Assembly (NCBI GenBank): GCA_964480485.1 | Contig: CAYZOP010000005.1 | Span: 124,793 to 188,792 of the forward strand | Origin: an uncultured Desulfobacterales bacterium | Lineage (GTDB): Bacteria > Desulfobacterota > Desulfobaccia > Desulfobaccales > 0-14-0-80-60-11 | Direction: 5' to 3' | DNA: 64,000 nucleotides | Shown here: positions 13,533-49,823 of the stretch, piece by piece | Numbering within the stretch: position 1 is the stretch's first letter | How the letters are laid out: every line of letters starts with the position of its first letter | Translations under genes and position numbers: made by a program | The notes under the pieces: generated by a model | What the model was told of the DNA's origin: nothing | Database searches by the model: none | What the model saw: the letters and a program-made list of their open reading frames with translations, nothing else

Positions 13533-13620
13533 GCCGGAGTGGTGGAATGGGTAGACGCAGGGGACTCAAAATCCCCCGGGCCGCGGGCCTGTGCGAGTTC
13601 GAGTCTCGCCTCCGGCACCA
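13533..13620 (+). tRNA. tRNA-Leu(CAA)
   Basis: GCCGGAG/CTCCGGC acceptor stem, D-loop GGTGGAATGGGTAGAC, anticodon arm GGGGA-CTCAAAA-TCCCC, long variable arm, GTTCGAGTC T-loop, encoded CCA. Confidence 0.96.
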
Positions 13621-13758: not shown

Positions 13759-15114
13759 CTATTCCTCCTCCTCTTCCAGCTCGATGCCGTCCCGTTCGAA
13801 CTGCTCGGCCCTAAGAGCCCGGGCCGCCTCGATCTCCGCCTCGCTCCAGGGTTCGTAGTCCAGGCAATTGGCCACCAGTTCCCAGAGATAGAGCGTTTCC
13901 TTATAGTGGCCCATGTCCATTTGGCCTTTCTTGACCTCGCCCCCCAGGCCCTTTAAGATCTGATCCCGGCAGTTATGGCAGGGAGCGATGACCAGCTCGG
14001 CGCCGGTGGCCCGGATCTGGTCGGCCTTCATGCGGCCGTAGGCCAGGCGTTCCTCATCGTAGGGCATGGCCCAGGCCCCGCCCCCGGCGCCGCAGCATAA
14101 ATTGTTCAGCGGATCGTCCGTCATCTCCCGGTAGAGGGCGGGGTCGATACACTGCTGGGCGATCCAGCGGGTCTGATAGGCGGTGTGCTCTCCGAAGGCC
14201 ATGTGGGATTTGCGCACGTAATTGCACGGGTCGTGTACCGTGTAAGTTTCGTGATAGGTGCGGGTATTGAGCCTGATCCTGCCTGCCTTGATATATTCCT
14301 CCAGCAGGTCCATGACGCTCACCACCCTAAACTCTTCAAAAACTTCCGGAAACCAGTTTTGGAACCCGAACCGGGTCGCATAGTAGGCGTGCCCTCATTC
14401 GGGGTATAAGATAGTCTTGCATTTCAATCGCCGGGCGTTTTCGATGACCCGGGCCACCTGAGCCTTCATGGACTCGTCGTCCCCGGAGAACAGGCCCCAG
14501 TTGACTCCTTCCCAGTTGATGGAGGAGACGGTCCAGTCCTCCCGGGCGGCGTAAAAGATGCGCCACCAGAACTTCATGTCGTCGGGCTCGCCGAAGGGCT
14601 CCTTGGAGTTGACGGTGACAATGAGGTTGGCCCCTTCCTTGTCCACCGGCACATAGAACCCGGGACAGGGCTGGGACTCGTCGTTTTCCATCTCCACGCC
14701 CAAATCCGCCAACAGGAACAGGAAGTCATCCCGGGGAATCCCCAGGTTGTTGCCCCGCTCCAAGTTCATCATGGTGCCCTTGTGGATGGGACCCGGCACC
14801 TGATCCCGGTCCCGGGCGGTGCGGCAGGCCCGGAAGGCCTTGAGGAGCTGGATGCCCATGGGGCACTGATACTGGCAGCGGCCGCACAGGGTGCAGACCC
14901 AGGGCCACTTGGAGTCGATGACCTCCTGCTCAAGCCCGAAAACAATGGCCCGGATGGCCTTGCGGGGGTCCCACCCCGGCACCAGGCCGGAGGCGGGGCA
15001 GCCGCCGGAGCAGGTGCCGCAGGTATAGCAACGGTCCGCCACCTCGGGGCTGAGCCCGCCGATGCGCCGCACCCGACGGTCCACGCTCACCCACGGAAAA
15101 GCCTCTTCTGCCAT
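13759..15114 (-). CDS. HdrD/GlpC-like Fe-S oxidoreductase (2x[4Fe-4S] + CCG domains), probable selenoprotein (UGA at 14395-14397)
   Basis: ORFs 14395..15156 and 13759..14325 are in one frame separated only by TGA. Read-through gives ILYPE-U-GHAYY where the family has PECGH. CYTCGTCSGGCP and CTLCGRCQYQCP ferredoxin motifs; HDPCN, CCGAGGG, PCHNC CCG motifs. GGAGG RBS before ATG 15114. Confidence 0.88.
14363..14377 (-). promoter_or_regulatory. Candidate bacterial SECIS hairpin
   Basis: mRNA: UGA + 17 nt + G-ACCCG-[GUU]-CGGGU-U, a 5-6 bp stem with G first in the apical loop. Confidence 0.65.
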
Positions 15115-15253
15115 GTTCCCTCCAAACGTACGCTTGATTTGGGGAGAGGAGGCCAAAGGTGGGCGGTCCCTCCCCCCCTCCCCCCCTGCCGATCTACAGG
15201 GGGGAGAGGCGCTCGAAGGGAGGACCGGCGGCTCCTGGCCCTCCCCGCAATCT

Positions 15254-18187
15254 TCAGCCGGTGTGGAGAAACTCTTTTACCAGGCGGCTCCAGCCCAATT
15301 CCGGATAGTGGCCGAAGACGTCGTCGATGAGCGCGCCGCCGGACTGGAGGGTGGCGCCCACCGAGGGCTCCAGCATGCCGATGAGCCTTAGGGTCTCCTG
15401 TTCCATCCAGGGGAGGCAGGCCGGGCCGGAAAGCAGGTTTCCCAAATCCTGGCTCAGTTCCGTGGGAGCCACCATGATCAGCCAGCCGTCGCCGTAGGGG
15501 TCGTCATGCACCAGCCCCGGCCGGTTTAGAACCTTGGGGTTCACCGCTTCGATGATCCCATAGACCGGGCCCAGGACCGCAGCCTGCTCTTTGCCGCGAT
15601 GCAGGGCCAGCGCCGCTTGCTCCCGGCGGATCTCCTGGCCGACCTTGGGCAGCCGCAGGCTGTCGCCCGGCCCCAGGACTTTCTGGGAAAAATCGTCCAT
15701 CCCCAGGCGCAGCCGGCCGCCGGATTCCAGGGCCACCCACGTATGGCCCCGGTGGAGAAAGCGGGAGGTGGGCACCTTGAGGCCGAAGACTTCCTCAAAC
15801 TCCTCCATCATCTTGGCCAGAAAGACGGCCAGAGCCCGGTATTCCGGAGTTTGCTCCAGGACCTCCCGGGCCCCCCCGGTCAGCCGCTTGACGGCCTCCT
15901 GCTGGCCCCGGGAGGGCAGGAAGGCGTTGCCTGGCCGCAGCCGTCGGTTCACTACGGCGGTGGCCAGGACGGATTCGCCCCCGTTTTCCACCGTAAGGAA
16001 ATCCCCTGGCTGGATGCCTAAAGAGTGGGCATCCTGGGGATTGAGTTCAACGATGACTTCTTCGTTTTCCCGGAAGGGCACCGGCGGTTGCCCCACCTGA
16101 GAAACGCCGGGGTGCCGGGCGAAGGCGGTGCCGATGGTCAGCCAGAAGGGGTGGGCGGGATCGATGGCGGTGGCTTGGGGCCCCAGATTGGCCACGAAGT
16201 GGTCCAGGGTGTCCAGGAAATCCCCCGGAGCATTGGCTGCCAGAGAGTGAAACAGCAGGCGGTTTGGGTCGATGCCGGCCTCCGCCAGCAGGGCCTGGAC
16301 CTGCTCCACCCCCCGGGCGGCGCACAGGTTGCCATGGGAGGACTTGCAGTTGTCCGTCGGGCAGGAGAGCACCATGACTCCGTCGGCTCCGGCTTCGAAG
16401 GCCTGGAGCAGGTATTCCGGATCAACCTTGCCGGCGCACGGCATCTTGATGGGGGTGAAGCCCAAGGGCAGCGACGCGGCATGCTGACGGGTCGTTGTCT
16501 GCCAGGCCTCCCAAGCGGAGTTGCGGCACAGGAAGGCAACGATGCGCGGGCGGAGGTGGGGATCCAGGGCAGTAAGCTGCGCCATCACCTGATCGTCGGC
16601 ATAGTTCCGCAGTTGGATGGCGTCGTTGGGGCACTGGCTGGCACAGGTGCCGCAACCCTGGCAGGCCAGCTCATGGATGATGGCTCGACTGTCCCAGGTA
16701 ATGGCCCCATGCGGGCAGAAGCGGTGGCAGGTGAGGCACAGGACGCATTTACCCCGATCCACCACCGCCCGGCCCGCCGGGGCCACCGCCTGACCCTGGC
16801 CCAAGAGGTCCTGAACCGCCAGGAGCGCGGCGTTGACATCGGCATCAGTATCCTCCAGATCCATGAGGCCCCGGGCGGGCCCAACCACGAAAATCCCCCG
16901 GCGGTTGGTGGCCACCGGGATATAGTGGACGTTGTCATCCTGGAGAAAGCCCCGGGGGCCCAGGGGCAGGCGGAGGAGTTCGGCCAGCCGGGCATTGTCC
17001 TCCGTGGCCCGGTACTGGTCGTCCAGGACCACCAGGTCGGCCATCAGGGCCATCTCCTCACGCAGGGTGGGCTCATAAAAGGTGAGGCGCACTCCGGCGT
17101 CCGTCAGGCTGAAGATCGGGCAGTCCCGGAGCTTGATGAACACCAGGCCGGCTTCCTGGGCCTCCCGAAGAGCCCGCTCGATTCCCTTGCCGGCCAGCTT
17201 GGTGTTGCCCACCAGGAGAAACACCCGGCTGCCGGCTTCCAGCATCTTGGCGGCGGCCTTGAGAGCCCGGCCCAGAGATAAGGGGTGGCTCTCCCCGGCC
17301 AGCCCTACCAGAAAGGCGACGCTGCCCGGGAGGGCGGCGCCGGCAGCCAGCTTGGCCTCCAGCCGTCTCTGGGAGATGATGCCGGGGTGCTCCGGCGCCC
17401 CGTGGCAGTTGCGGGCGCTCTGGCGTTGCAGTTCCGGGGCCAACACCACGGCGCCCACCGTCTCCCGCAGCTGGCCTTGGGGGGTGGCGAGGCTTACGGT
17501 GAAGGCGCCGGTGACGCCGCCGAAGTCCCGGATAGTTGCCTCAAACACCCTCTGGATGAGGGGATGGTCCTGTATCTGCCGGGTAAGGCTGGCCAGCAAC
17601 TCCGATCCCGCAATTCCCAGGGCATATTCGAAGGCCAGGGAGCTGGGCTCAGGGTTGGGACTGGCCAAGAGGACCGGATAGTCCATCTGGGCCAATTCCC
17701 AGGCCAGGCGCCAGGCGGCATAGGAATCCCCCCACACCAGAACCCGGCGGCTGACCGGCACGGTTTGGGAGCTAAGGGGCACGGCCCGGCTGACCTGGGC
17801 GGCCGCCAGGTGGATCATCTCCAGGCTCTTGGCGGTGCGGGCCGCCGGATCCGGGTATTCCAGGGCGAGGGTCAGGTCCACTTCCTGAAAGCGGGCGGGG
17901 TTCACCCCCACCTCCTCCAGCAGGAAGCGGGCCACCCCGGCGCCCCGGTGTTCCGGATCCTTGGCCACCAGGAGCACCGGTCCCGCTGCCTGGTCCGGCG
18001 GGAACAGGGGACGCAGCAGTTCCGCCTGCCGGTGGGCCGGCAGCGCCGGGTCCACGGGGATCACCTGGCAGTCAGGGAGGCGGGCCTCCTCATGGGAAAA
18101 CTTTTGGGGGTCCAAGCCGGCCTGGGCCAGTTCCGGGCCGTGCATGACCAGGATATGCAGGGTGCTGTCGGGGTGTGCAGGGTTCAC
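15254..18187 (-). CDS. Multidomain fusion: degenerate HdrA-like half + 2x[4Fe-4S] + MvhD + molybdopterin-dinucleotide-binding-fold domain + GcvH-like domain
   Basis: HdrA-like segments (VGAVVLA, GFLQDDNVHYIPVATNRRGIFVVGPARG); CVLCLTCHRFCP and CQGCGTCASQCP; MvhD (IVAFLC, MPCAGKVDPEYLLQAFEAGADGV.V.SC..DNC...GN); VELNPQDAHSLGIQPGDFLTV...PGNAFLP; GHTWV...GMDDFSQK...GPVYGIIEAVN...DDPYGDGWL. GTG start overlaps the upstream stop (GTGA) after a GGAGG RBS. Confidence 0.85.
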   Translation of the reverse strand: MNPAHPDSTLHILVMHGPELAQAGLDPQKFSHEEARLPDCQVIPVDPALPAHRQAELLRPLFPPDQAAGPVLLVAKDPEHRGAGVARFLLEEVGVNPARFQEVDLTLALEYPDPAARTAKSLEMIHLAAAQVSRAVPLSSQTVPVSRRVLVWGDSYAAWRLAWELAQMDYPVLLASPNPEPSSLAFEYALGIAGSELLASLTRQIQDHPLIQRVFEATIRDFGGVTGAFTVSLATPQGQLRETVGAVVLAPELQRQSARNCHGAPEHPGIISQRRLEAKLAAGAALPGSVAFLVGLAGESHPLSLGRALKAAAKMLEAGSRVFLLVGNTKLAGKGIERALREAQEAGLVFIKLRDCPIFSLTDAGVRLTFYEPTLREEMALMADLVVLDDQYRATEDNARLAELLRLPLGPRGFLQDDNVHYIPVATNRRGIFVVGPARGLMDLEDTDADVNAALLAVQDLLGQGQAVAPAGRAVVDRGKCVLCLTCHRFCPHGAITWDSRAIIHELACQGCGTCASQCPNDAIQLRNYADDQVMAQLTALDPHLRPRIVAFLCRNSAWEAWQTTTRQHAASLPLGFTPIKMPCAGKVDPEYLLQAFEAGADGVMVLSCPTDNCKSSHGNLCAARGVEQVQALLAEAGIDPNRLLFHSLAANAPGDFLDTLDHFVANLGPQATAIDPAHPFWLTIGTAFARHPGVSQVGQPPVPFRENEEVIVELNPQDAHSLGIQPGDFLTVENGGESVLATAVVNRRLRPGNAFLPSRGQQEAVKRLTGGAREVLEQTPEYRALAVFLAKMMEEFEEVFGLKVPTSRFLHRGHTWVALESGGRLRLGMDDFSQKVLGPGDSLRLPKVGQEIRREQAALALHRGKEQAAVLGPVYGIIEAVNPKVLNRPGLVHDDPYGDGWLIMVAPTELSQDLGNLLSGPACLPWMEQETLRLIGMLEPSVGATLQSGGALIDDVFGHYPELGWSRLVKEFLHTG

Positions 18188-19422
18188 GTCTTTGCCTCCA
18201 GATAGTGGCGCACCTGCCGCACCGTCTGGGTGGCGTCGGCGATGCACTCCAGAATGCCCAGGGGGCCTTTGGCGGTTCCCACCAGGAAGACGCCGGGAGG
18301 TGCGCCTGAGGCCCCGTTTTGCAAAAAGCCGTCCGCCGTCAGGGGCAGGTTTAACAGGTCCGCCAGCCTGGCGTTGTCCAGCCCCGGGGAGATGCCCACC
18401 GCCAGGACCAGGAGGTCCACCACCCGGAACAGGGCCTGCCCGCCGGCCTCATCGAAGAAGCGAAGCTTCAGGCTGCCGTCGGCGGTGGGCGCCAGGTCCC
18501 CGGGCAGGACCCGGATGAGCTCCAGTTCCTGTTGCACCGCGGCTTCGAATCCCAGGGGGTCGGGCCCCACGTTTTGCAGGTCCATGTAAAAGGTGGTTAC
18601 CTGGACCTCGGGCCAGCGATGCCGGATGAGCCGGGCCAGGCGCAGGCCGTAGGCGCAGCAGACCCGGGAGCAGTAGGAATGCTCCCGGTCCCGGCTGCCC
18701 ACGCACTGGATGAAGGCCACCCGCCGCACCCGGCGGCCGTCCTGGGGCCGGAGGAGGGGGCCGCCCTGGCGCAGGATCTCTTCCAGCTCCCAGCCGGTGA
18801 TGATCTGGGGGAGGTGGCGGGAGGCGGCGATGGAGCGGGCCGGCGGCGCTGCGGGCTGATACCCGGTGGCCACCACCAGGCTGGAGGTTGTCAGGCTCAC
18901 CGTGGTCCCAGGGCGGGTCAGGTCGATGGCCTGGGTGGGGCAGCTCTCCTGGCAGCGCCGGCAGGAACCGTCCTGGAAGTAGAGGCAGACCGCCGGATTC
19001 ACCGCATAGCGGGGGTGGTTCTCCGCCGAGGCCGTGGTGAGCAGGGCTCCCGGCACCGGACACTCCTCCAGGCAGAGGCCGCAGTCCAGGCAGCGGTGGG
19101 GGTCCACCGGCTGGGGGCTGGACCGCAGGGTGAGATCCAGCCGGCCATGGTCCCCCCGGGCGGCCGTCAGATCCGTGTTGGGATAGCGGGTGATGCCCGG
19201 CGTGGCAAACAGGTCCCGGAGCGCCTGCTCCACCCGGCAGGCCCCGCACTTCTGGCAGACCTCCGTGGCCTTGCACACAAAGCTGCCGGCCCGTCCGCCG
19301 AAAAAGGGGCTTTTCTCCACCAGGGCCACGTCCCATCCGCCCCGCCTCAGCTCCAGGGCGACGGTGATGCCGGCAATGCCGCCGCCCAGGACCACCACCG
19401 GATAGGTAGGTTCGCTTTTCAT
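18184..19422 (-). CDS. HdrA-like FAD/Fe-S protein (short, QmoA-sized)
   Basis: VVVLGGGIAG FAD motif; CLDCGLCLEECP and C.RCQESCP ferredoxins; FIQCVGSRD...YCSRVCC HdrA cluster motif; GVFLVGTAKGP. Confidence 0.88.
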   Translation of the reverse strand: MKSEPTYPVVVLGGGIAGITVALELRRGGWDVALVEKSPFFGGRAGSFVCKATEVCQKCGACRVEQALRDLFATPGITRYPNTDLTAARGDHGRLDLTLRSSPQPVDPHRCLDCGLCLEECPVPGALLTTASAENHPRYAVNPAVCLYFQDGSCRRCQESCPTQAIDLTRPGTTVSLTTSSLVVATGYQPAAPPARSIAASRHLPQIITGWELEEILRQGGPLLRPQDGRRVRRVAFIQCVGSRDREHSYCSRVCCAYGLRLARLIRHRWPEVQVTTFYMDLQNVGPDPLGFEAAVQQELELIRVLPGDLAPTADGSLKLRFFDEAGGQALFRVVDLLVLAVGISPGLDNARLADLLNLPLTADGFLQNGASGAPPGVFLVGTAKGPLGILECIADATQTVRQVRHYLEAKT

Positions 19423-19458: not shown

Positions 19459-20343
19459 TTAGGCGCCTGCGGCCTGAATCACTTCCGCCAGCAGGTCGCT
19501 TTTGCCCTTGGCCTTGACATAGGCTCCGTCCGCCAGCTTCTCTGCTCTGATTTGCCTGAGCAGCCGGCCGACTAAGGCGGCGCCCCGGTGCAGCACCTCT
19601 TCGGGGTCGCTGCCCGCCAGTTCCCGGATGACCTCGGGGGGCAGGGAATAGACCTTGCGCAGCTCGCCTTGGGCGGCCTTGTCCACTTCCTCGGCGCTGG
19701 GCACCTTGACGCAGGCCAGGAGCTTGGCGCCGTTGAGCTCCAGTCCCTGCCGGAAGCGGCGGAATTTCTCCAGGTCGAAGACCGGGGCGGTGACCAGAAA
19801 CTGGGCTCCGGCGGCCAGCTTCTTTCGGATCTTGAGCTGCTGGGGCGCCAAGGGGTCGGCCTCGGGGATGGCCACCGCGCCCAGGAAAAACTGGGGATTT
19901 CCCTGCAGGGCGTGGCCGGCGCTGTCCTGGCCCGCCATGAGTCCCTGGGCGATCTTAAGGAGCTGCACCGAGTCGGCGTCGTAGACCGGCTTGGCGTCGG
20001 GATGGTCCCCGAGGGTGACGTAGTCGCCGCTCAGCATCAGGAGGTTTTCCACCCCCAGGGCGGCAGCCCCCAAGAGATCGCTCTCCAGGGCCAGGCGGTT
20101 GCGGTCCCGGCAGGTCATGAGGAGCAGGGGCTCCCCCCCGGCTTCCTGCACCAGCCGGGCCGCGGCCAGGGCCGAGACCCGCATCTTGGCATGCTCGTTG
20201 TCCGGGACCCCGAAGGCCGCGACGGTGCCGTTCAGGCCGCGCACCGGAGCCAGCATGGCCTTGAGATCCACCCCCTTGGGAGGCTTGATTTCCGCAACGA
20301 TGGGGAACCGGCCGCCTGCCAACGCTTCCTTGAGCTTACCCAT
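19459..20343 (-). CDS. metF: Methylenetetrahydrofolate reductase large subunit MetF
   Basis: AEIKPPKG; PDN; MTCRDRNRLALESDLLGA..LGVEN.L..SGD....GDHP.AKPV.D.DS.QL; KK..AGAQF. Confidence 0.93.
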   Translation of the reverse strand: MGKLKEALAGGRFPIVAEIKPPKGVDLKAMLAPVRGLNGTVAAFGVPDNEHAKMRVSALAAARLVQEAGGEPLLLMTCRDRNRLALESDLLGAAALGVENLLMLSGDYVTLGDHPDAKPVYDADSVQLLKIAQGLMAGQDSAGHALQGNPQFFLGAVAIPEADPLAPQQLKIRKKLAAGAQFLVTAPVFDLEKFRRFRQGLELNGAKLLACVKVPSAEEVDKAAQGELRKVYSLPPEVIRELAGSDPEEVLHRGAALVGRLLRQIRAEKLADGAYVKAKGKSDLLAEVIQAAGA

Positions 20344-21016
20344 GGGTGCCGTATCTCCTCAGATAGCCCGGGTGGATCACCGTGCCGGGATGGGTGCTCC
20401 GTCCATGCGGATGGAGGGGCAGGATGGCCTCGATCTCCCCCAGCCGGCCTTGCCGGGCCAGTTTTTCATAAATCTCGCACCAGGCGCAGGCCCGGTCCTG
20501 GTTGACCTCGCACTTCCCCTGGATATTGCCGCCGCAGGGGCCGTTCAAGAGCCCCTTGGGGCACATGGTCTGGGGGCAGACGCCGCCGGTCAGGCCCAGA
20601 TAGCACTGGTGGCAGGCCCGGCAGCGCTCGGTGTAGAGCCCCGCAGCCTCGTTCACCCCGATGAAGGTGGTGTTCAGGGCCGGGAAGACCGGCTTCATCT
20701 CGGGCATGGCCGCCAGGAATTGCACCCCGGCGCCGCAGGCCGTGGAGATGACCGCATCGTAGTCAGCCGCCAGGTCTCTGAGAGGCTCAATGAATTCCCG
20801 GTCGCACTGTCGTTCCACCGTGATCTCTCCGATACGGCCGTTCTGGCCCGCCAGTTTGCGGGCGAGTTTGAGCTGCGAGGCCAGCAGCCCCACCTCCTTC
20901 TCGCCCCCCGCCAGGCAGACCGCCACGCAGGTGCCGCAGCCCACAATGAGCAAATGCTCATAAGGGGCCACCATGTCCTTGATTTCCTGAAAAGGCTTGC
21001 GCGCTGCGATAATCAT
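20336..21016 (-). CDS. metV: Methylenetetrahydrofolate reductase small subunit MetV (Cys-rich Fe-S/Zn)
   Basis: GCGTC..VC..GGEKEV; ERQCD.EF; ACGAGVQ; ERC.AC..C.LG.TGGVCP...CPKGLLNGPCGG...GKCEV; overlaps the metF start. Confidence 0.92.
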   Translation of the reverse strand: MIIAARKPFQEIKDMVAPYEHLLIVGCGTCVAVCLAGGEKEVGLLASQLKLARKLAGQNGRIGEITVERQCDREFIEPLRDLAADYDAVISTACGAGVQFLAAMPEMKPVFPALNTTFIGVNEAAGLYTERCRACHQCYLGLTGGVCPQTMCPKGLLNGPCGGNIQGKCEVNQDRACAWCEIYEKLARQGRLGEIEAILPLHPHGRSTHPGTVIHPGYLRRYGTHG

Positions 21017-21516
21017 GATGCCACCGCCGTTTGAGGTTCTGCCGGGACCGCCTCCGGGCGTCCCCAGGCCGGGTTCAAGGGGCTGGGACCCAGGGCCTTG
21101 ACCCGTTCGGTCATTTCCTTCACCACCGCCACGAACTTGGGAGCGTCACTGGCCGCGATCTCGTACATGGCCAGCCGGTCCGCACCTAGGCCGACCTCGT
21201 CCAGCAACTGCCGGGCATATTCCACTCGCTCTCGGGCTCTGAGATTTCCTTCCAGGAAATGGCAGCTCCCGGCCTCTCACCCGCCCACGAAGATGGCGTC
21301 CGCCCCGGCTTCAAAGCCCTTCAAAATGTGGATAATGTCGATGCGGCCGGTGCACAGGTACTTGACGATGCGCACCGTGGCCGGGTACTGCATCCGGGCC
21401 GAGCCCGCCATGTCCGCGGCGGTGTAGGTGCAGTAGGTGCACACGAAGGCCAGGATCTTGGGGCTGAACTCCGCCCCGACTGCCGGGGCGGCGGCCGTCT
21501 CTCGCGCTGCTTTCAT
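21013..21516 (-). CDS. mvhD: MvhD/FlxD-type [2Fe-2S] subunit, probable selenoprotein (UGA at 21277-21279)
   Basis: ORFs 21277..21594 and 21013..21225 are in one frame. Read-through gives KILAFVCTYC...CTGRID...KGFEAGADAIFVGG-U-EAGSCHFLEGNLRARERV, with UGA at the GCxxxxCH cysteine. Confidence 0.92.
21244..21260 (-). promoter_or_regulatory. Candidate bacterial SECIS hairpin
   Basis: mRNA: UGA + 16 nt + AUUUCCU-[GGA]-AGGAAAU, a perfect 7-bp stem with G first in the loop. Confidence 0.75.
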
Positions 21517-21523
21517 GGGATCC

Positions 21524-24500
21524 CTACCTTGTCTCTGCGCCCATCGCCGGCCAGGACTCGCGGATGGCGGCGATTTTGGCGATAAACTGCTCATCCAGGT
21601 TGTGCTTCACCGCGATGGCCTTGCGGGGGCAGGCGCTGGCGCAGTTGCCGCACCCCTGGCAGGCGGCGGCGTCAATCTGCACCACGCCTTCGCTTTCATC
21701 CATACGCGGCACCCCGTAGGGGCAGGTGCGCACACAGGTCAGGCAGGCCACGCACTTTAAGGGGTCCACCTGGGCCACCGAGCCGGCCACGTACATCTCC
21801 TCCTGGGCCAACACCCCCATGGCCCGGGCCGCCGCACCCCTGGCCTGAGCCAGGCTTTCCTCCAGGGTCTTGGGGCCGTGGGCCAGGCCGCACAGAAAGA
21901 CGCCCGCGGAGGCGAAGTCCAGGGGTCTGAGTTTCAAGTGCGCCTCCATGAGGAAGCCGTCGGCGTCCGGGGGCAGCTTGAAAACCCGGGCGATGTCCTG
22001 GCTGGCCGGGTGGGGCCGGATGGCCGCGGACAGCACCAGGTAGTCGGCGGGCAGGGCCAAGGCAGCCCGGAGGGACGGATCATAGACCTGCACCTCCAGC
22101 CCCTGGGGCCCCGCCTTGACCTCGGGCCGACGGTCCGCGTCAAAGCGCACAAACTGCACCCCCAGGTCCCGGGCCTTCTTGTAGTAGACTTCTTTCAGGC
22201 CGTAGGTCCGGATGTCCCGGTAGAGGATGAAGATCTCCGCCCGGGGGTTGAGTTCCTTGAGCCGGATGGCATTTTTCACCGCCTCGCCGCAGCAGACCCG
22301 GCTGCAATACGGGTGCTCCGGCTCCCGCGAGCCGACGCACTGGATCATCACCACCCGGGCTTGGCCCTGGAAATCCTGGGGGCCCTCCCAGAGCAGATGC
22401 TCAAACTCCGTTTGGGTGAGGACCCGGGGATTTTGGCCGTAGAGGTATTCCTGCGGCTCGTACTCCTGGGCGCCGGTGGCGACGACCACCGCACCGTACG
22501 TAAGTTCCCGACGGAACTGCCCGGCGGCCACGGTGCTTGTGAACTTGCCGATGTGCCCGGAGACGTCCAGGACCCGGGTGTTGGGAAGCCACTCGATCAA
22601 GGGGTGGTCTTCCACCCGCCGCACCAGATCCTCCAGAAAGGGCTGCACCGGGTGCCCCTCCAGGGTGTGGTGCAGCCGCCGGGCCAGGCTGCCGGAAAGC
22701 TTGCCGTCCTGCTCCGTCAGGTAGACCTGGTAGCCGCCGTCGGCGATGGTCAAGGCTGCGGTGAGGCCGGCCAAGCCGCCTCCCACCACCAGGGCCTTTT
22801 GGGTCACCGGGAAAAGCAGGTCGCCGATGGGTTTCAAAAGGGCCGCCCGGGCCACCGACATGCGCACCAACTCCTTGGCCTTCTCGGTGGCCAGTTGGGG
22901 GGAGCCCTGGTGGACCCAGGAGTCCTGGTCCCGAATGTTGGCCATTTCAAAGAGATACTTGTTCAGCCCCGCCTTGCGCAGGTTTTCCTGGAACAACGGC
23001 TCGTGGGTCCGGGGGCTGCAGGAGGCCACCACGATGCGGTTCAGGTTTTCCGCTTCGATGACCTGGCGCATGTTGTCCAGGGAATCGGTGGCGCAGGTGA
23101 AGGTGTAATGGTCGGCATAGGCCACCTGCGGCAGGCCGCGGGCATAGTCGGTGACCGCAGCCACGTCCACCACGCCGGCGATGTTGATGCCGCAGTGGCA
23201 GATGAACACGCCGATGCGGGGTTCCGCCCCCAGGATGTCCTTTTCCGGCGGATATGCCTCTTTGGTCACCAGGGTGCCCCGGGCCTCCGCCAGGGAGGCT
23301 GCGGCGGCGCCAGCCGCGCCCGAGGCCTGTCCCACGGTCTCGGGGATGTCCTTGGGGGACTGGAAGGCGCCGCAGGTGAAGATGCCCGGCCGGGAGGTGT
23401 GCACCATTTCCATGGGCGGGCTCTTGACAAAGCCCCAACGGTCCGTGTCGATGCCCAAGTGGCGGGCCAGCTCCCGGGTGGCCGGGTGGGGGTTCAAACC
23501 CACCGAGAGCACCACCATCTCAAAGACCTCGCTCTGAACCGTGCCGGCTTCGTCCACGTAGCTCAGTTCCAGATCGTGGGTGCCGGGGTCCTGGGCCACC
23601 CGGGAAATCATGCTGCGCACGTAGCGCACCCCGTGATCGGCCTTGGCCCGCTCGTAGTAGCGGTCGAAGCCTTTGCCCTGGGCCCGAAAGTCAATGAAGA
23701 AGATGGTGGGTTCAATGTCGGCGTCGTGCTCCCGGGCAATGATGGCCTGCTTGGTGGCGTACATGCAGCAGACATAGGAGCAGTATTCCCGGCCGCAGGA
23801 GGCGTCCCGGGAGCCCACGCACTGGATCCAGGCCACCTTCCGGGGGGCCCGGCCGTCGCTGGGACGAAGCACGTGGCCGCCGTAGGGGCCCGTGGCGGAG
23901 AGCAGCCGCTCGAATTGCAGGGAGGTCACCACGTTGGGGTAGCGGCCGAAGCCGTACTCGGCCTTTTGGGCGGCGTCGAAGGGCCGAAAGCCCGGGGCCA
24001 GGATCAGGGCCCCCACCTCAAGTTCCCGTATTTGCGGCTGCATGCTGTGGTCGATGGCCCCGGCCTGGCAGGCGGTGACGCACTGCATACATTCGGAGCA
24101 GCCGCCGCAGTTGATGCAGCGAGCCGCTTCGTCCACCGCCTGGTCTTCTGCGAACCCCAGGTTGATTTCCTGAAAGCCCTGGGTCCACTGGTCAGGGGGC
24201 AGCTCCGGCATGCGGGCCCGTGGTTTTCTGGCCGCCTTTCCCGGGATGGGGGTCCAATGACCCTCCTCTTTGGGGAGGGGCCGCAGGGGAAAGTCCCGGT
24301 TTGCGGTGAGGTCACGGCCGTTGATATAGCGGTGGATGGACTCCGCCGCCTCCCGGCCTGCGGCCACTGCGGCGATGGCGATGTAGGGCCCGGAGACCAC
24401 GTCGCCGCCGGCAAAGACGCCTGCCCGGCTGGTGGCCAGGGTGAGGGGGTCGGCCTCGATGAGCCCCCGGGGGGTGAGCTTGAGCCCGTCCGCCTCGGTG

Positions 24501-25999
24501 AGGAAGTCCAGGTGGGCTTTTTGGCCGATGGCCAGGATCACCGCATCGGCACGGCGGGTGACGGTTTCCTCTTCCCGGTAGGTGGGGGCGAAGCGGCCCT
24601 GCTCGTCGAAGACCCGCTCCACCGCTTTGAGCACCGCGCCGGTCACCGCTCCCTGGGGTGCCAGAATCTCTTTGATCCCGAAGCGGTGCCAGATCTCGAT
24701 GCCCTCCCGTTGCGCTTCGGCCACCTCCCAGGGGGAGGCGGGCATCTCCGATTCGCTCTCCAGGCAGACCACCGTGACCCGGCCGCCTTGGCGCCGGGCG
24801 GTGCGGGCCACGTCCATGGCCACGTTGCCGCCGCCGATGACCAGGACCTCCTGGCCCTGGAAGTCAAAGCGCTCCCCGGAGGCCGAGGCCTTGAGGTATT
24901 CCACGCCCCAGAACACCCCCCGGGCATCGGCGTTGGGCACCGGCAGACGGATGGAGTCCTGGGCGCCCACACCCACGAACACGGCCCGAAAGCCCTTCGC
25001 GGTGAGGAGATCGTTGATGGTGCAGCCGGGGCCGCCGATGGGAGCGTTATAATGGATCTCCACCCCAAGCCGGTTAATGTAGTCCACCTCCCGGTCCAGC
25101 ACCTCCCGGGGCAGACGGTATTCCGGAATGCCGTAGCGCAGCCAGCCGCCCGCCTGAGCTGCGGCCTCGAAGATCTCCACCCGGTAGCCCCGGCGGGCCA
25201 GGTGATAGGCGCAGCTCAAACCCGAGGGTCCCGCCCCCACCACGGCCACGGCCTCCTGCCGTTTCTCCACCTGGGGGACCGGCAGCGTCTGCCAGTCCAC
25301 CTGGTCGGCCACGAAGCGCTTCAGGGCGCAGATGGCCACCGGCTCGTCCACCTCCTGGCGGCGGCAGGCGGTCTCGCAGGGGTGGGGGCAGATGCGGCCG
25401 ATGGTGCCGGGCAGCGGCAGACGCTCCATGATCAGGGCCAAGGCTTCGGGGAATTTCCCCGCCTTGACGAGCTGTACGTAGCCCTGCACGCTCAGGTTGG
25501 CGGGACAGGTCCGCACGCAGGGCGCCCGGTCCAGCTTCTTGATGGCGAAGGTGGCGGGAATGGCCTGGGGAAAGTGGCGGTAGGCCGCCGGCCGCATCCC
25601 CAGGCCCTCGTCAAAGCTGGAGGGCAGCTTGACGGGGCAGGCCTCGGCGCAGGCCCCGCAGGCGTTGCATTTGGCCCGGTCGATGTAGCGCGGCTCCTGG
25701 CGCAGGGTGAGGGTGAAGTTCCCCGCCTCGCCCGCCACCCCCGCCACCTCCGACTGGGTGATGATCTCGATGTCCGGGTGGCGGGCCACCTCGATGAGCT
25801 TGGGGGAGATGAGGCAGGTGGAGCAGTCGTTGGTGGGGAAGGTCTTGTCCAGTTGGGCCATGACCCCCCCGATGGAGATGTCCCGCTCCACCAGGTAAAC
25901 CTTAAACCCGGCGTTGGCGGCGTCCAGGGCGGCCTGCATGCCGGCGATGCCGCCCCCCACCACGGCGATGGCGCCTGTTTTGGTGCGTTCGCTAGTCAT
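21524..25999 (-). CDS. HdrL-type large flavoprotein: tandem HdrA halves with an inserted GltD/NfnB-like NAD(P)H oxidoreductase
   Basis: HdrA N-terminus GGGIAG..AALD, LDKTFPTNDCSTC; GltD-like insert (APC..TCP, GRICPHPCE..C.R, GAGPSG, GGWLRYGIPEYRLP, IGGGNVAMD, EAARCINC); two QCVGSR..YCS.VCC motifs; ASCSPRTHE; C-terminal 2x[4Fe-4S]. Confidence 0.9.
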   Translation of the reverse strand: MTSERTKTGAIAVVGGGIAGMQAALDAANAGFKVYLVERDISIGGVMAQLDKTFPTNDCSTCLISPKLIEVARHPDIEIITQSEVAGVAGEAGNFTLTLRQEPRYIDRAKCNACGACAEACPVKLPSSFDEGLGMRPAAYRHFPQAIPATFAIKKLDRAPCVRTCPANLSVQGYVQLVKAGKFPEALALIMERLPLPGTIGRICPHPCETACRRQEVDEPVAICALKRFVADQVDWQTLPVPQVEKRQEAVAVVGAGPSGLSCAYHLARRGYRVEIFEAAAQAGGWLRYGIPEYRLPREVLDREVDYINRLGVEIHYNAPIGGPGCTINDLLTAKGFRAVFVGVGAQDSIRLPVPNADARGVFWGVEYLKASASGERFDFQGQEVLVIGGGNVAMDVARTARRQGGRVTVVCLESESEMPASPWEVAEAQREGIEIWHRFGIKEILAPQGAVTGAVLKAVERVFDEQGRFAPTYREEETVTRRADAVILAIGQKAHLDFLTEADGLKLTPRGLIEADPLTLATSRAGVFAGGDVVSGPYIAIAAVAAGREAAESIHRYINGRDLTANRDFPLRPLPKEEGHWTPIPGKAARKPRARMPELPPDQWTQGFQEINLGFAEDQAVDEAARCINCGGCSECMQCVTACQAGAIDHSMQPQIRELEVGALILAPGFRPFDAAQKAEYGFGRYPNVVTSLQFERLLSATGPYGGHVLRPSDGRAPRKVAWIQCVGSRDASCGREYCSYVCCMYATKQAIIAREHDADIEPTIFFIDFRAQGKGFDRYYERAKADHGVRYVRSMISRVAQDPGTHDLELSYVDEAGTVQSEVFEMVVLSVGLNPHPATRELARHLGIDTDRWGFVKSPPMEMVHTSRPGIFTCGAFQSPKDIPETVGQASGAAGAAAASLAEARGTLVTKEAYPPEKDILGAEPRIGVFICHCGINIAGVVDVAAVTDYARGLPQVAYADHYTFTCATDSLDNMRQVIEAENLNRIVVASCSPRTHEPLFQENLRKAGLNKYLFEMANIRDQDSWVHQGSPQLATEKAKELVRMSVARAALLKPIGDLLFPVTQKALVVGGGLAGLTAALTIADGGYQVYLTEQDGKLSGSLARRLHHTLEGHPVQPFLEDLVRRVEDHPLIEWLPNTRVLDVSGHIGKFTSTVAAGQFRRELTYGAVVVATGAQEYEPQEYLYGQNPRVLTQTEFEHLLWEGPQDFQGQARVVMIQCVGSREPEHPYCSRVCCGEAVKNAIRLKELNPRAEIFILYRDIRTYGLKEVYYKKARDLGVQFVRFDADRRPEVKAGPQGLEVQVYDPSLRAALALPADYLVLSAAIRPHPASQDIARVFKLPPDADGFLMEAHLKLRPLDFASAGVFLCGLAHGPKTLEESLAQARGAAARAMGVLAQEEMYVAGSVAQVDPLKCVACLTCVRTCPYGVPRMDESEGVVQIDAAACQGCGNCASACPRKAIAVKHNLDEQFIAKIAAIRESWPAMGAETR

Positions 26000-26062
26000 A
26001 TGGGCTCAGTCGTTTGGTCGGGCGGACGGGGGGCGAACCAGAGCGCCGCCCCGCCCCGGGGT

Positions 26063-26893
26063 TCACAGCAATCCCTTGCCTTTAAGCAGGGGCCGGGGAT
26101 CCACCAGGTGCCGGGCCAGCCAGCCGGGGGCGTCGGGATGTCCCAGGGCCAGTCCCATGAGCTCGGTGAAATAAAACACCGGCAGATAATAGGGTTTGCC
26201 GGTCCGCCGGGAGATCCGCCCCTGGGTCAGATCCAGATTGGCCTGGCACATCTGGCAGGCCACCACGAAACACTCGGCCCCGGCCGCCAGGGCCCGGTCA
26301 TAGAGGCGGGCCGCCAGGGTGTCGATGAGGTCCGGCCGGGCCATGGCCAAGCCGGCCCCGCAGCAGTCGGTCTTATAGGACCAATCCCGGGGGTCGGCCT
26401 GGAGGACCTCCAGGAGCCGGTCCAGGCCGGTGGGGTTCTCCCAATCCGGTTTGTCGGTGATGCCCGGGGGCCGGGCCGCCAGGCAGCCGTAGTAGCCCAC
26501 CGCCTTGAGGCCGGTAAGGGGCCGCACCACCTCCTTGGCTAAGGCGGCCAGAAAGCTCTCCTGGGTGAGAAAGTCCAGCAGGTCCCAAATCTTCACCCCC
26601 GTCTCCCGCTCCCCGGGGGGCGCCTGCTTTTCGGCGGCTTTGAGCCGGTTGAAGCAGAGGGCGCAGGGCACCACCACGTCCAGGCCGACCTGCCGGGCCA
26701 GGGCCAGGTTGCGGGCCGGCAGCGCCACCGCCAGGTGGTGATTGAGGCTGTGGGCGGCGCTGGCGCCGCAACAGTTCCAGTCCTCCAACTCCTCCAGATC
26801 CACTCCCATAATGGGCGCCACGGCGTGGATGGAGGCGGCGTAGTCCGCCGCGGTGCCCTCCAGGGAACAGCCGGGATAATAGGATACCTTCAT
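26063..26893 (-). CDS. hdrB: Heterodisulfide reductase subunit B
   Basis: YYPGCSL, DWNCCGA, PCALCFNRL, YYGCL..RP, CCGAG, ACQMCQANLD (two CCG domains). Confidence 0.95.
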   Translation of the reverse strand: MKVSYYPGCSLEGTAADYAASIHAVAPIMGVDLEELEDWNCCGASAAHSLNHHLAVALPARNLALARQVGLDVVVPCALCFNRLKAAEKQAPPGERETGVKIWDLLDFLTQESFLAALAKEVVRPLTGLKAVGYYGCLAARPPGITDKPDWENPTGLDRLLEVLQADPRDWSYKTDCCGAGLAMARPDLIDTLAARLYDRALAAGAECFVVACQMCQANLDLTQGRISRRTGKPYYLPVFYFTELMGLALGHPDAPGWLARHLVDPRPLLKGKGLL

Positions 26894-26900
26894 GCCTGCC

Positions 26901-27482
26901 TCACACCCCCGCGTCTTGAAAGATTTTGGCCAGATCGTTCCGCCCCTTGAGAGGCTTGGGGCCGATGGGGCGCAGCCTGCCACGGCGCAATAGCCCCCAC
27001 CCCAGCTTGGCGTTCTCCCAGAGTTCTTTCAGGTCAGGTCGCCGCCTGAGCTTATACAGGGTGAAGCGCTGCATGAGGGCCATCTCCCCCAGGCGCCCTC
27101 CGCTCCGGCGAATGCTCTCCAGAAAGAAGCGGTGGAAAACGGCCACCTCCGGCTGTGCCACCGCCTTCCCTTGGCGCAGGGCCTCCTCTTTGAGCCAGTC
27201 CATGACGCCGGCGATGTCGATGCCGTTGGGGCAGCGGGTGGTGCAGGTGACGCAGGCGGCGCAGACCCAAATGGTGCGGCAGGTGAGCAGCGTCTCCGTC
27301 TGACCCAGGAGCGCCAGGCGGATGACCCGGTCCGGCAACAGATCCATGGCGAAGGTCAAGGGGCAGCCGGCGGAGCACTTTTTACACTGAAAGCAGGAGG
27401 AAACCGGGGTGGGAAAATGCCTGGCCAGGCTTTCGGATAACGTAAAGGATGGGACCAGCGGTTGGTCGAGGTTGCGTTCCAT
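26901..27482 (-). CDS. hdrC: Heterodisulfide reductase subunit C
   Basis: CFQCKKCSAGCP and IWVCAACVTCTTRCPNGIDI; F...FLESIR..GR..E; precedes hdrB. Confidence 0.95.
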   Translation of the reverse strand: MERNLDQPLVPSFTLSESLARHFPTPVSSCFQCKKCSAGCPLTFAMDLLPDRVIRLALLGQTETLLTCRTIWVCAACVTCTTRCPNGIDIAGVMDWLKEEALRQGKAVAQPEVAVFHRFFLESIRRSGGRLGEMALMQRFTLYKLRRRPDLKELWENAKLGWGLLRRGRLRPIGPKPLKGRNDLAKIFQDAGV

Positions 27483-27485
27483 CAA

Positions 27486-40247: not shown

Positions 40248-41528
40248 TCAATCCATCATGCCGAGGCGCCGGCTCAGGCGTTCCACCACCTTGACCCCTT
40301 GGGCCTCCAGCTGGCGGCGGGCCAGGGGGGACACGGCGCCGGTGACCCAGAGCTCAAACCCGGCCGGGGTCCGGCTGGTTTTTTTATAGCTGGCAAGGGT
40401 GTTCTTCACCACCTTTTCGGCCCGCACCGTCCAGACCCCATAATCCAAGGGAAAGGGAATGACCACCGTGCCGTTGGCCGCACGGGCCAGAATGATCCCC
40501 GGCGCCGTGATCTCCTGGATGGGAGAGACGGTTTGCTGATAGGCCACCAGGATCTCGGCCAGATTTTGCATAAAATTGGCCGAGTCCTCGTCATGCGCCT
40601 GCAAGGCAAAATTGATCAAGGCTTCCCGCCCCCGGGCTCCGGAAAGCTTTTCCAGGCTGGCCACGATGACGGTTTTGTGGCGGGGACTGAGCTGGTTGTG
40701 GTTGAGGAAGCGCTGGGTCAGGCCCGGGTCAACTCCCATGGCCTGAAGCTTCCGCTCGTTGAGGTTGCGCAGGCTGCTGGGCGATTCGTCCCGGAGCAGG
40801 CGGTTGACTTCGCCGGCGGTTTGCGACATGCGGCTGAGGCTCACGGCGGTGCCCCCGCCGTAAGGGATGGCCGCCGTCACTCCCAGGGACCCCAGGGCCT
40901 GGGCTTTGCCCAGGCTGTCCAACTCGTTTTGCAGCACCCGGTTGCTGGAATAGACGTCCACTCCCAGGTCATAGGCGAGTTTCCGCTTGGCCTCCGAAAC
41001 CTGGAGGAGCTGCTGCCCCACGGGGTCCCGGCGGGCCTCCCGGGGCTTTTGTACTCCGGTGGCGAGGTTGTCGAAGAGCTTGGCCACCCCCTGGGGCACG
41101 CTGGCCAGGGTGCGGCCGGGGTCGGTGACGAGATTGGCCCCGAAATCCAGGGTGTCCTGGGCCTTGCCCTTTACCCCCTCCACAAAAGCCTCGCCTTTGC
41201 TCATCTGCCTGAGGGCGGCGATGGCCTGAATCTCCCTGATGAGCTTTCTAAGCCCATATTCGCCGGTCACCGGAAAGGTGCCGTAATCCGAGTTCACCGT
41301 GAAGCGCAGCATGTAGCCGTCCGCCGCCACCCGGTCCTGCACCTGGAAATGCGGGCCGGATCGGAGATCCGCCGGCAACACCTCGGCGGCCCGCCGGTCG
41401 CTTGGCACTTCATATCTGGCCGCCGCCGCCGCCGTTCCGGTTGCGTCAGTCAGAAAAAGCAGGAGGGCGGCTCCACCCATCAAAAGGCCGTTTCCCGTTT
41501 TGGCCAACGTTCGGCCCCACTTTCCCAT
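40248..41528 (-). CDS. Exported conserved hypothetical protein
   Basis: Signal-like N-terminus; LRSGPHFQVQDRV..DGY...FTVNSDYGTF....LRKLIREI.AIAAL; GC3-rich codons; co-directional first gene of the cassette. Confidence 0.7.
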   Translation of the reverse strand: MGKWGRTLAKTGNGLLMGGAALLLFLTDATGTAAAAARYEVPSDRRAAEVLPADLRSGPHFQVQDRVAADGYMLRFTVNSDYGTFPVTGEYGLRKLIREIQAIAALRQMSKGEAFVEGVKGKAQDTLDFGANLVTDPGRTLASVPQGVAKLFDNLATGVQKPREARRDPVGQQLLQVSEAKRKLAYDLGVDVYSSNRVLQNELDSLGKAQALGSLGVTAAIPYGGGTAVSLSRMSQTAGEVNRLLRDESPSSLRNLNERKLQAMGVDPGLTQRFLNHNQLSPRHKTVIVASLEKLSGARGREALINFALQAHDEDSANFMQNLAEILVAYQQTVSPIQEITAPGIILARAANGTVVIPFPLDYGVWTVRAEKVVKNTLASYKKTSRTPAGFELWVTGAVSPLARRQLEAQGVKVVERLSRRLGMMD

Positions 41529-48715: not shown

Positions 48716-49823
48716 ATGTTGCCGGATGTGACCGAAACCCGTGTCAAGCTCAAGCAATTCCGCGACAAGTTAACCCAGCTCCGAGGTCATCTTTGATTTA
48801 GACGGCAAATTGCGGCGCGTGCAGGAGCTGGAGGACATTATGAGCAAGCCCGGCTTCTGGGACGACCCGGCCCAGGGTGCGCCGGTGCTCAAGGAACGGG
48901 CGGGTCTTCTGGCCGCGGTGGAGGACTACCACGGCCGGGAAAAGCAGGTGGAGGACCTGGAGATCCTGCTGGACCTGGCCCAGGAGGAGGAGGACCAGCA
49001 GGCCCTGAAGGACGTGGTCCGGGAGATGGCCGACCTGGAGCGGGACTTCCGAGACTGGGAGCTCAGGCTCCTCATGGCTGCGGAAGAGGATCAGAAAAAC
49101 GCCATCATCACCATCCACGCCGGCGCCGGCGGCACCGAAGCCCAGGACTGGGCCGAGATGCTTTTGCGCATGTATCTGCGCTACGCCGAGCGCAAGAACT
49201 TCCAGACCGAGACCATCGACCTGCTGCCCGGCGACGAGGCCGGAGTGAAGAGCGTTACCTTTACGGCCTCGGGCCCTTATGCCTACGGCTACTTCAAAAG
49301 CGAAAACGGCATCCACCGGCTGGTGCGCATCTCGCCCTTTGACGCCAGCGGCCGCCGGCACACCTCCTTTGCCGCGGTCCAGGTGCTGCCGGAAGTGGAC
49401 GACCGCATTGAGGTGGAGATCAACGACAAGGATCTCAGGGTGGACACCTTCCGGGCCAGCGGCCCAGGAGGGCAGCACGTCAACAAGACCAGCTCCGCGG
49501 TGCGCCTCACCCACCTGCCCACCGGCATCGTGGTCAGCAGCCAGTCGGAGCGTTCCCAACACCGCAACCGGGAGTTGGCCATGAAGGTGCTCCGGGCGCG
49601 CCTCTATGACCTGGAGCGGCGAAAGCGGGAAGAAAAACGGCAGGAGTTGCAGGATACCCAAAAGGAGATCGCCTGGGGCAGCCAGGTGCGCTCCTATATC
49701 ATGCAGCCCTACCGCCTCATCAAGGATCACCGCACCAAATACGAGGCAGGCAACGTGGAGGCAGTGCTGGACGGCGACCTGGACGGCTTTGTGGAGGCGT
49801 ACCTGCTCAATCCGGAGAACTAG
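48716..49823 (+). CDS. prfB: Peptide chain release factor 2 with +1 programmed frameshift
   Basis: GGAGG RBS; ATG 48716 gives 26 codons ending CTT then TGA (48794). Shifting +1 gives GAT TTA GAC and joins ORF 48810..49823 ([25 protein letters not shown]). An SD-like AGGT lies 3 nt before the slip site. Confidence 0.96.

Follow-up and report, generated by a model that had tools for sequence, protein, structure and literature searches.

In the window analysed here, i.e., the whole stretch of 64,000 nucleotides from contig CAYZOP010000005.1 of an uncultured Desulfobacterales bacterium, a minus-strand gene interrupted by a single in-frame TGA was recognized as what is almost certainly a genuine selenoprotein gene, with UGA codon 240 read as selenocysteine (Sec). 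The predicted product is a soluble HdrC-HdrB fusion resembling HdrD and DsrK. Taken as a whole, i.e., Sec decoding together with a DsrK-like mechanism, this is very probably the best explanation of the data, a judgement dominated by the Sec call; the full mechanism is regarded with less confidence. The gene runs from an ATG at 15114 to a TAG stop at 13761-13759, and has 451 sense positions including the one UGA (Sec240). A GGAGGG Shine-Dalgarno sequence lies 5' of the ATG, and the alignments of relatives begin at residue 1. The features that carry the Sec call, including a hairpin that resembles a selenocysteine insertion sequence (SECIS) and was identified partly by its minimum free energy (MFE) structure, are the following.

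13759..15114, minus strand: complete gene of the selenoprotein, a soluble HdrC-HdrB fusion (HdrD/DsrK-like); assigned by Pfam, homologs and NCBIfam.
14395..14397, minus strand (TCA on the plus strand): in-frame UGA, codon 240, in the motif YPE-U-GH; assigned by Cys in homologs and TGA in orthologs.
14360..14380, minus strand: SECIS-like hairpin UG.GACCCG-GUU-CGGGUU.CA, with the core stem at 14363-14377 and the apical loop GUU at 14369-14371; assigned by MFE and synonymous constraint.

The TGA stands in the context ...KTILYPE-TGA-GHAYYATRFGF and is the sole in-frame TGA of the 451-position frame. In the protein database, 784 homologs were found at E<=1e-10, and 21 of them were aligned for the TGA column. 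Cys occupied this column in most full-length homologs (LLLPE-C-GHAYYATR), forming a PECGH motif.

Orthologous genes were collected by a scan of one genome per species. The scan gave 80 related loci with 63-85% amino acid identity, each from a different species-level genome, and all were Desulfobaccales, Syntrophobacterales, Desulfobacterales or Thermodesulfobacteriota metagenome-assembled genomes. TGA was found at the identical codon in 80/80 of these loci, i.e., in 81/81 when the window gene is counted. Judged on sequence grounds, a TGA at the same codon with the frame intact in 81 species is far beyond chance. The region 3' of the TGA showed a mean identity of 72% to the window gene, compared with 83% upstream, and its frame stayed open for a median of 208 codons. 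The cysteines of the CCG domain (C297, C340, C341, C379, and C382), all encoded 3' of the TGA, were conserved in at least 78 of the 81 genes. Because the 3' half is conserved, its frame is open and the CCG cysteines are kept, the region after the TGA is clearly translated.

By the criterion reportedly used in bSECISearch (Zhang and Gladyshev, 2005), a bacterial SECIS is a hairpin about 16-37 nt from the UGA whose apical loop is small and includes a G. The hairpin of the window gene has this geometry. The spacer from the UGA to ACCCG-GUU-CGGGU is 18 nt long (GGGCACGCCUACUAUGCG), and the apical loop GUU, which has 3 nt and G as its first base, begins 23 nt after the UGA. Folding of a 42-nt context gave an MFE structure of G-ACCCG/CGGGU-U plus UG/CA, i.e., 8 bp with a 1x1 internal loop. 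The same context was folded for the window gene and five diverse relatives, and all (6/6) gave a hairpin with a G-first apical loop starting 23-24 nt after the UGA. In the main clade, the stem is invariant save for one position, where G-C is replaced by G-U, and the loop and its encoded amino acid vary (F, V, A, Y, S, and G). The divergent clade (L067-L080) has another hairpin sequence at the same place, i.e., ACCA-GGGU-UGGU plus a GCG/C(U)GC lower stem. The strongest evidence for constraint on the RNA is the conservation of synonymous sites seen in the codon alignment. Thr247 was encoded by ACC in 81/81 genes, the sole invariant codon among 101 conserved codons of four- or six-fold degeneracy. 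In addition, when normalised codon entropy was taken over 5-codon windows, the four smallest values in the entire gene all fell within codons 243-251, over the hairpin.

A second gene of this type was recognized by scanning the window for TGA-split frames with a coding-like GC content at third codon positions (GC3) on both sides. The gene, an MvhD/FlpD homolog at 21516..21013 (minus strand), is an unannotated Sec candidate; its in-frame TGA (21277-21279) forms part of the motif FVGG-U-EAGSCHF. It sits 7 kb from the Sec240 gene, in an apparent gap between a giant HdrA-like gene and MetV. Read through the TGA, it matched the FlpD profile end to end (1-123/123, E 2.6e-46). Downstream of the UGA is a strong hairpin of -18.9 kcal/mol; its loop, GGA, has 3 nt and begins at a distance of 23 nt. 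Among the fetched loci, the corresponding codon was TGA in 6 and TGC or TGT in 11, and the Sec-form genes showed the same hairpin with a compensatory change of the stem from U:A to A:U relative to the window. MvhD/FrhD is a classical selenoprotein (PMC1794560). Thus, the Sec-type codon predicted in this gene lends independent, indirect support to Sec decoding in the source organism. Other frames in the scan were rejected: the candidate TGA at 40248 separates two adjacent genes in the same frame, and the remaining TGA-split frames had low GC3 on one side.

An earlier note, made from the letters of the window, had proposed a hidden selenoprotein here. It described one in-frame TGA at 14395-14397 dividing an otherwise intact 451-codon gene, which is what the translation displays. 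It placed this TGA at the Cys of PECGH and suggested homolog comparison as a check; the alignment agreed, with Cys in most sequences of the column. The ACCCG-GUU-CGGGU hairpin that it put about 18 nt after the UGA was found at that place, as the MFE structure of the 42-nt context and under the minimum of synonymous entropy. The proposal of a selenoprotein was thus upheld by the Cys/Sec column, the TGA in 80/80 loci, the constrained 3' half, the synonymous constraint at the hairpin, the truncated database entries (e.g., P0080, see below) and the second Sec-type gene.

Several observations weigh against this reading. No selA, selB, selC (tRNA-Sec) or selD gene was found within the 64-kb window. 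The hairpin is small and its folding energy was no better than that of shuffled sequences (z +0.30 to -2.22), and in a 61-nt context after the UGA the MFE structure was a different fold instead of the ACCCG-GUU-CGGGU hairpin (z +0.2). Therefore, thermodynamics alone cannot support the hairpin. RNAalifold of 19 representatives gave a near-empty consensus of -1.4 kcal/mol, and no double-sided changes were found by pair counting. The stem scarcely varies in the main clade and the register of the divergent clade is shifted by one base, so that strict covariation was not demonstrated. Searched against Rfam at E<=10, the gene matched no SECIS family and returned noise only. In the homolog alignment, a few sequences have Ser (P0011 and P0014, PE-S-GH) or Thr (P0092, PE-T-GH) in the Sec/Cys column, so the residue is not indispensable in every paralog. 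Either these three homologs are inactive or regulatory paralogs, or they are a sign that the residue is not always essential. Lastly, in most loci the Sec gene stands alone among housekeeping genes. As the neighbourhood is not conserved, the electron donor and the substrate named below are guesses.

The product was divided into domains by profile and structure searches. The following features were assigned, the last of them in comparison with homologs that carry a helix-turn-helix (HTH) domain.

14851..15039, minus strand: HdrC-like domain, amino acids 26-88, with two CxxCxxCxxxCP motifs for two [4Fe-4S] clusters; assigned by Pfam Fer4_8 and Fer4_17.
14251..14667, minus strand: degenerate first CCG-fold half, amino acids about 150-288; assigned by the lack of a Pfam CCG match, the AlphaFold2 model and Foldseek.
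13960..14244, minus strand: intact CCG domain, amino acids 291-385, with C297, C340-C341, C379, and C382; assigned by Pfam PF02754 (E 7.7e-10).
13762..13857, minus strand: acidic, helical tail at the C-terminus (EPWSEAEIEAARALRAEQFERDGIELEEEEE), characteristic of the subfamily without HTH; assigned by homolog alignment and model.

The N-terminal domain was matched by solved HdrC chains of the PDB over amino acids 14-130 (E about 1e-14), and HdrC was also placed on it by Foldseek. The intact CCG domain lies wholly 3' of the UGA, and its five Cys are predicted to bind one non-cubane [4Fe-4S] cluster. The second CCG domain of HdrB (PDB chains) matched amino acids 288-396. The first half is different. 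When amino acids 150-288 were searched in isolation, no CCG match was obtained in Pfam even at E<=10. U240 is the only invariant Cys/Sec position of this half, with C150 present in 53/81 genes and C232 in 40/81. Since no other Cys is conserved, the first half cannot bind a cluster of its own. The acidic C-terminal tail is common to P0001, P0112, P0114, and P0120 in the alignment, and a helix was modelled at residues 418-435.

The fold was predicted with an AlphaFold2 model built, from 117 sequences, on the Cys homolog P0001 (72% identical) in place of the window protein. The model (pLDDT 93.4, pTM 0.92) consists of two similar beta-alpha-beta-alpha-beta halves. In the first half, Cys238, i.e., the counterpart of U240 in the window, caps the N-terminus of the helix that follows strand 3, and C377xxC380 is placed likewise in the second half. 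Foldseek matched the model to mycobacterial EtfD (E 2e-11), to LutA, and to HdrB chains, the last aligned over 290-320 columns (TMt 0.57-0.64). Because the HdrB chains extend across all these columns, both halves have the CCG fold. An hhalign comparison of the first half with the second gave a probability of 2%. Given this value and the missing Pfam match, sequence methods cannot align U240 to a specific CCG cysteine. In the predicted structure, U240 is topologically equivalent to the first Cys of the cluster-binding CxxC pair in HdrB, as judged from the order of the predicted secondary-structure elements and from the HdrB matches over the whole chain.

The best NCBIfam matches, aligned over amino acids about 61-386, were HmcF (E 8.8e-53), TmcB (5e-44), and DsrK (7e-37). 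All scores were far below the equivalog cutoffs, i.e., 180 of 750, 150 of 735, and 127 of 400, respectively. The GlpC equivalog TIGR03379 gave 16 bits against a cutoff of 280, and no glpAB genes lie nearby. By these profile scores, DsrK/HmcF/TmcB-like is the better family label, and GlpC is only a loose COG label. Besides their one CCG motif, DsrK, HmcF, and TmcB contain a (T/G)ECGH motif whose Cys is strictly conserved (PMC10861901). In the same paper, on DsrMKJOP of A. fulgidus, the lone (T/G)ECGH Cys of single-CCG proteins was interpreted as what remains of the lost cluster motif, with a probable catalytic role as a thiol beside the one non-cubane [4Fe-4S] cluster (PMC10861901).

The window protein shares with these proteins the two [4Fe-4S] clusters, one CXnCCGXnCXXC motif and the lone (T/G)ECGH position, here PE-U-GH. 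It differs from them in having Sec instead of Cys, in its distinct acidic C-terminal tail, and in the lack of a membrane partner gene (DsrM, HmcE, or TmcC; cytochrome b/NrfD-type) near the gene. The proposed correspondence of U240 to DsrK Cys329 rests on motif identity and on HMM alignments that span the site, and not on a structure superposition. The window was searched for another ECGH protein, e.g., a bona fide DsrK, and none was found. Methanogen HdrB and HdrD have in common with the window protein the fold of both halves and the HdrC-like domain for electron entry. However, they hold two non-cubane clusters, whereas the window protein has one complete CCG motif and a first half without four of the five Cys. 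As this half keeps a single Sec only, the two-cluster homolytic mechanism of HdrB/HdrD cannot apply.

Sec-containing relatives were reported before. A 2006 table of 25 bacterial selenoprotein families includes the Fe-S oxidoreductase (GlpC) (PMC1794560; reviewed in PMC9312934), and a 2026 review gives its Sec motif as UGH (PMC13188914). Compared by description, the Sec Fe-S oxidoreductase-like proteins (GlpC/COG0247; reference member WP_174406253.1) agree with the window protein in the ferredoxin and CCG domains, the single Sec, the UGH motif and the occurrence in Deltaproteobacteria/Desulfobacterota. In contrast to their typical, though not strict, operon glpC-hdrA-frhD-frhG-frhA, no hydrogenase subunits are encoded near the window gene, and HdrA and MvhD relatives lie upstream of the Sec gene only in the window and some loci. 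Desulfobacterium autotrophicum is a sulfate reducer rich in Hdr paralogs, and its HdrD4 and HdrF2 are selenoproteins by annotation (PMC2702500). By this annotation, HdrD4, a soluble Sec HdrD, and HdrF2 resemble the window protein as soluble proteins with HdrC and HdrB domains. The selenoprotein family and the UGH motif have been known since the mid-2000s, and the window gene adds no new principle.

The label HdrD/GlpC-like of the earlier note stood in its HdrD part, the protein being of the HdrD/DsrK type by fold and domains, and failed for GlpC proper (16 bits of 280). Its remark that the first CCG half looked degenerate agreed with the missing Pfam match in amino acids 150-288, where only U240 is invariant. 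Its statement that Sec-containing GlpC-type oxidoreductases had been reported in deltaproteobacteria was found to be right (PMC1794560; UGH motif in PMC13188914).

Most Cys homologs (P0002-P0111, about 480-500 amino acids) have an N-terminal DNA-binding domain of the HTH_17/excisionase type fused to the DsrK-like protein. They are named 'excisionase family DNA binding protein' in several databases, and the subfamily of the window gene has no HTH. The HTH-fused homologs may be redox-sensing regulators.

From the features above, a mechanism is proposed that covers Sec insertion, cluster content, electron path and substrate. By analogy with the standard bacterial mechanism, the hairpin 3' of UGA240 would recruit SelB with Sec-tRNA(Sec), and the UGA would be read as Sec and not as a stop. 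The product would be a cytoplasmic HdrD/DsrK-type selenoprotein, comprised of an HdrC-like domain with two [4Fe-4S] relay clusters and two CCG-fold halves. The first half would have lost its cluster ligands, with Sec240 as the only survivor of the motif of the lost cluster, and the second half would bind one non-cubane [4Fe-4S] cluster. Most probably, electrons would pass from ferredoxin, or from a flavoprotein module of the HdrA/MvhD type, to the HdrC-like clusters and on to the non-cubane cluster. In two one-electron steps, a disulfide or trisulfide would then be reduced jointly by this cluster and by Sec240 as a selenol(ate). In the role of the second HdrB cluster, Sec240 would be linked transiently, as a selenenyl-sulfide, to one half of the substrate or to the cluster. 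A disulfide or trisulfide of a DsrC-like protein, or a low-molecular-weight disulfide, is a plausible candidate substrate.

The strongest alternative concerns the role of Sec240 and not its identity. Sec240 might be a true, permanent Fe-S ligand, i.e., a sixth and exchangeable one that holds the non-cubane cluster 'open', and not a free redox-active selenol. Such a role agrees with the topological equivalence of Sec240 and the leading Cys of the CxxC pair by which HdrB binds a non-cubane cluster. DsrK and TmcB also show the EPR (electron paramagnetic resonance) signal of an 'open' cluster without substrate, and their conserved Cys might bind the cluster (PMC10861901). However, the other four ligand positions of the half are not Cys, which leaves no cluster of its own to ligate, and some homologs have Ser or Thr in the column. 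A permanent ligand is therefore considered rather unlikely, although it keeps appreciable weight. The suggestion of the earlier note that Sec may sit directly on the catalytic cluster accordingly survived in part, as one of two possibilities (Fe ligand or free selenol), with the Sec half lacking the other four ligands.

The two other alternatives deny Sec itself, and both are very improbable. By the first, the TGA is a genuine stop, i.e., the locus is a pseudogene, a sequencing error, or two genes encoding an HdrC-like fragment and a separately initiated HdrB-like fragment. Gene callers do give two fragments, as the earlier note had expected: the window gives the split open reading frames (ORFs) 14395..15156 and 13759..14325, and the homolog entry P0080 (248 amino acids, 77% identical, 33 member sequences) stops exactly at ...LLLPE. 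TGA is also the commonest stop in the window, ending 18/30 confident ORFs. However, the end of P0080 is, from its position, the signature of another truncated gene call, and the TGA occupies the identical codon in 81/81 species. The 23 codons that separate the TGA from the nearest possible start downstream show high conservation (GHAYYATRFGF.NWFPE) and run on without a gap in the Cys homologs, and a break here would fall within a folded domain of the model. Together with the conserved downstream frame and CCG cysteines, these points effectively refute a genuine stop. By the second alternative, the UGA is read through without Sec, by near-cognate Trp- or Cys-tRNA suppression or by lineage-wide recoding, which the missing Sec machinery in the 64-kb window would favour. 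As TGA is an ordinary stop of this genome, any recoding must be local and not global; further, the recoded codon aligns with the Cys of a redox motif, a conserved hairpin of SECIS geometry follows it, the same pattern occurs in MvhD, a classical selenoprotein, and the family is already listed as a selenoprotein with the UGH motif.

With Sec at codon 240 preferred on these grounds, a wider meaning can be put forward tentatively, at slightly less than even confidence. The fixation of Sec at the orphan (T/G)ECGH position would be a natural-variant argument that this residue is a redox nucleophile replacing the second non-cubane cluster of HdrB. The gene would then represent a widespread, stand-alone and soluble Sec-DsrK-like reductase in Desulfobaccales, Syntrophobacterales, and Desulfobacterales. 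If true, this bears on how single-cluster enzymes of the DsrK type cleave a disulfide or trisulfide. Sec points to the residue that does the chemistry, and its fixation at the lone ECGH site in at least 80 species supports the proposed reduction of disulfides or trisulfides, in enzymes of the DsrK type, by this residue acting with a single non-cubane [4Fe-4S] cluster. As a soluble member of the DsrK class, a single polypeptide of ~51 kDa without membrane partners, the protein could be a tractable model.

Within the searchable literature, no paper joining 'DsrK' and 'selenocysteine' was found, and the link seems not to have been drawn explicitly. Three points seem to lack an explicit statement in that literature, i.e., the DsrK/HmcF/TmcB-like assignment, the fixation of Sec in a stand-alone subfamily of at least 80 species, and the identity of 'UGH' with the catalytic ECGH cysteine of the DsrK type. 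There is also a consequence for annotation. Genes of this Sec DsrK-like family are routinely split or truncated, as in the 33 truncated entries of P0080 and the two ORFs of the window. As the CCG domain with its catalytic cluster is encoded wholly 3' of the UGA, the active site is missing from a truncated call.

Both in the window and in L052, the Sec gene follows the gene order hdrC-hdrB-hdrL-mvhD(Sec)-metV-metF-hdrA-(HdrA/MvhD/GcvH fusion). The Hdr-MetFV cluster was considered as a fixed functional partner and rejected: synteny was found only in L052 and, in part, in L056/L057 and L067-L079, and at most loci the neighbours are unrelated. In L067-L079, the Sec gene closes an HdrL-MvhD-FeS-FeS-PyrK-like (Flx-type) cluster, at the usual position of HdrBC. 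In L068 (2245-7296), for example, HdrL, the Cys form of MvhD, an Fe-S protein, a Fer4_22 protein, and a PyrK-like FAD/NAD/[2Fe-2S] protein precede the Sec gene. This cluster is Flx-Hdr-like, with the HdrD-like selenoprotein in the place of HdrBC, and one of its genes is partly masked by a run of N.

The window cluster at 19459-27485 (minus strand) encodes HdrC, HdrB, a 1491-amino-acid HdrA/NfnB(GltD)-like 'HdrL' fusion, MvhD(Sec), MetV, MetF, and a 412-amino-acid HdrA-like protein. It looks like a methylene-tetrahydrofolate reductase coupled to an Hdr bifurcating module. At 15254-18247 (minus strand), a fusion of 997 amino acids, also present in L052, combines 2x[4Fe-4S], MvhD (FlpD), Molydop_binding and a C-terminal GCV_H domain. 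Its N-terminal region showed weak tblastn similarity (22-27% identity) to HdrL/HdrA genes of other loci. A Lys of the fusion (HRGKEQ) aligns by eye with the lipoyl-lysine of GcvH. The fusion of a lipoyl-type carrier with an Hdr module recalls the LbpA/sHdr systems, and the carrier could be a disulfide substrate.

Three further observations were made in the window. The prfB gene, which encodes release factor 2, the reader of UGA, was found at 48810-49823 (plus strand), with a profile match that starts only at position 22, as would be expected from the programmed +1 frameshift that is usual near the 5' end of prfB. At other loci, prfB often lies close to the Sec gene, which is probably a coincidence. 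Upstream of the selenoprotein gene, the intergenic region 15115-15253 is rich in C/G runs (ccctccccccctccccccc). On the other side, a tRNA-Leu(CAA) gene at 13533-13620 (plus strand) runs convergently towards the selenoprotein gene, at a distance of 139 nt from the stop of the latter.

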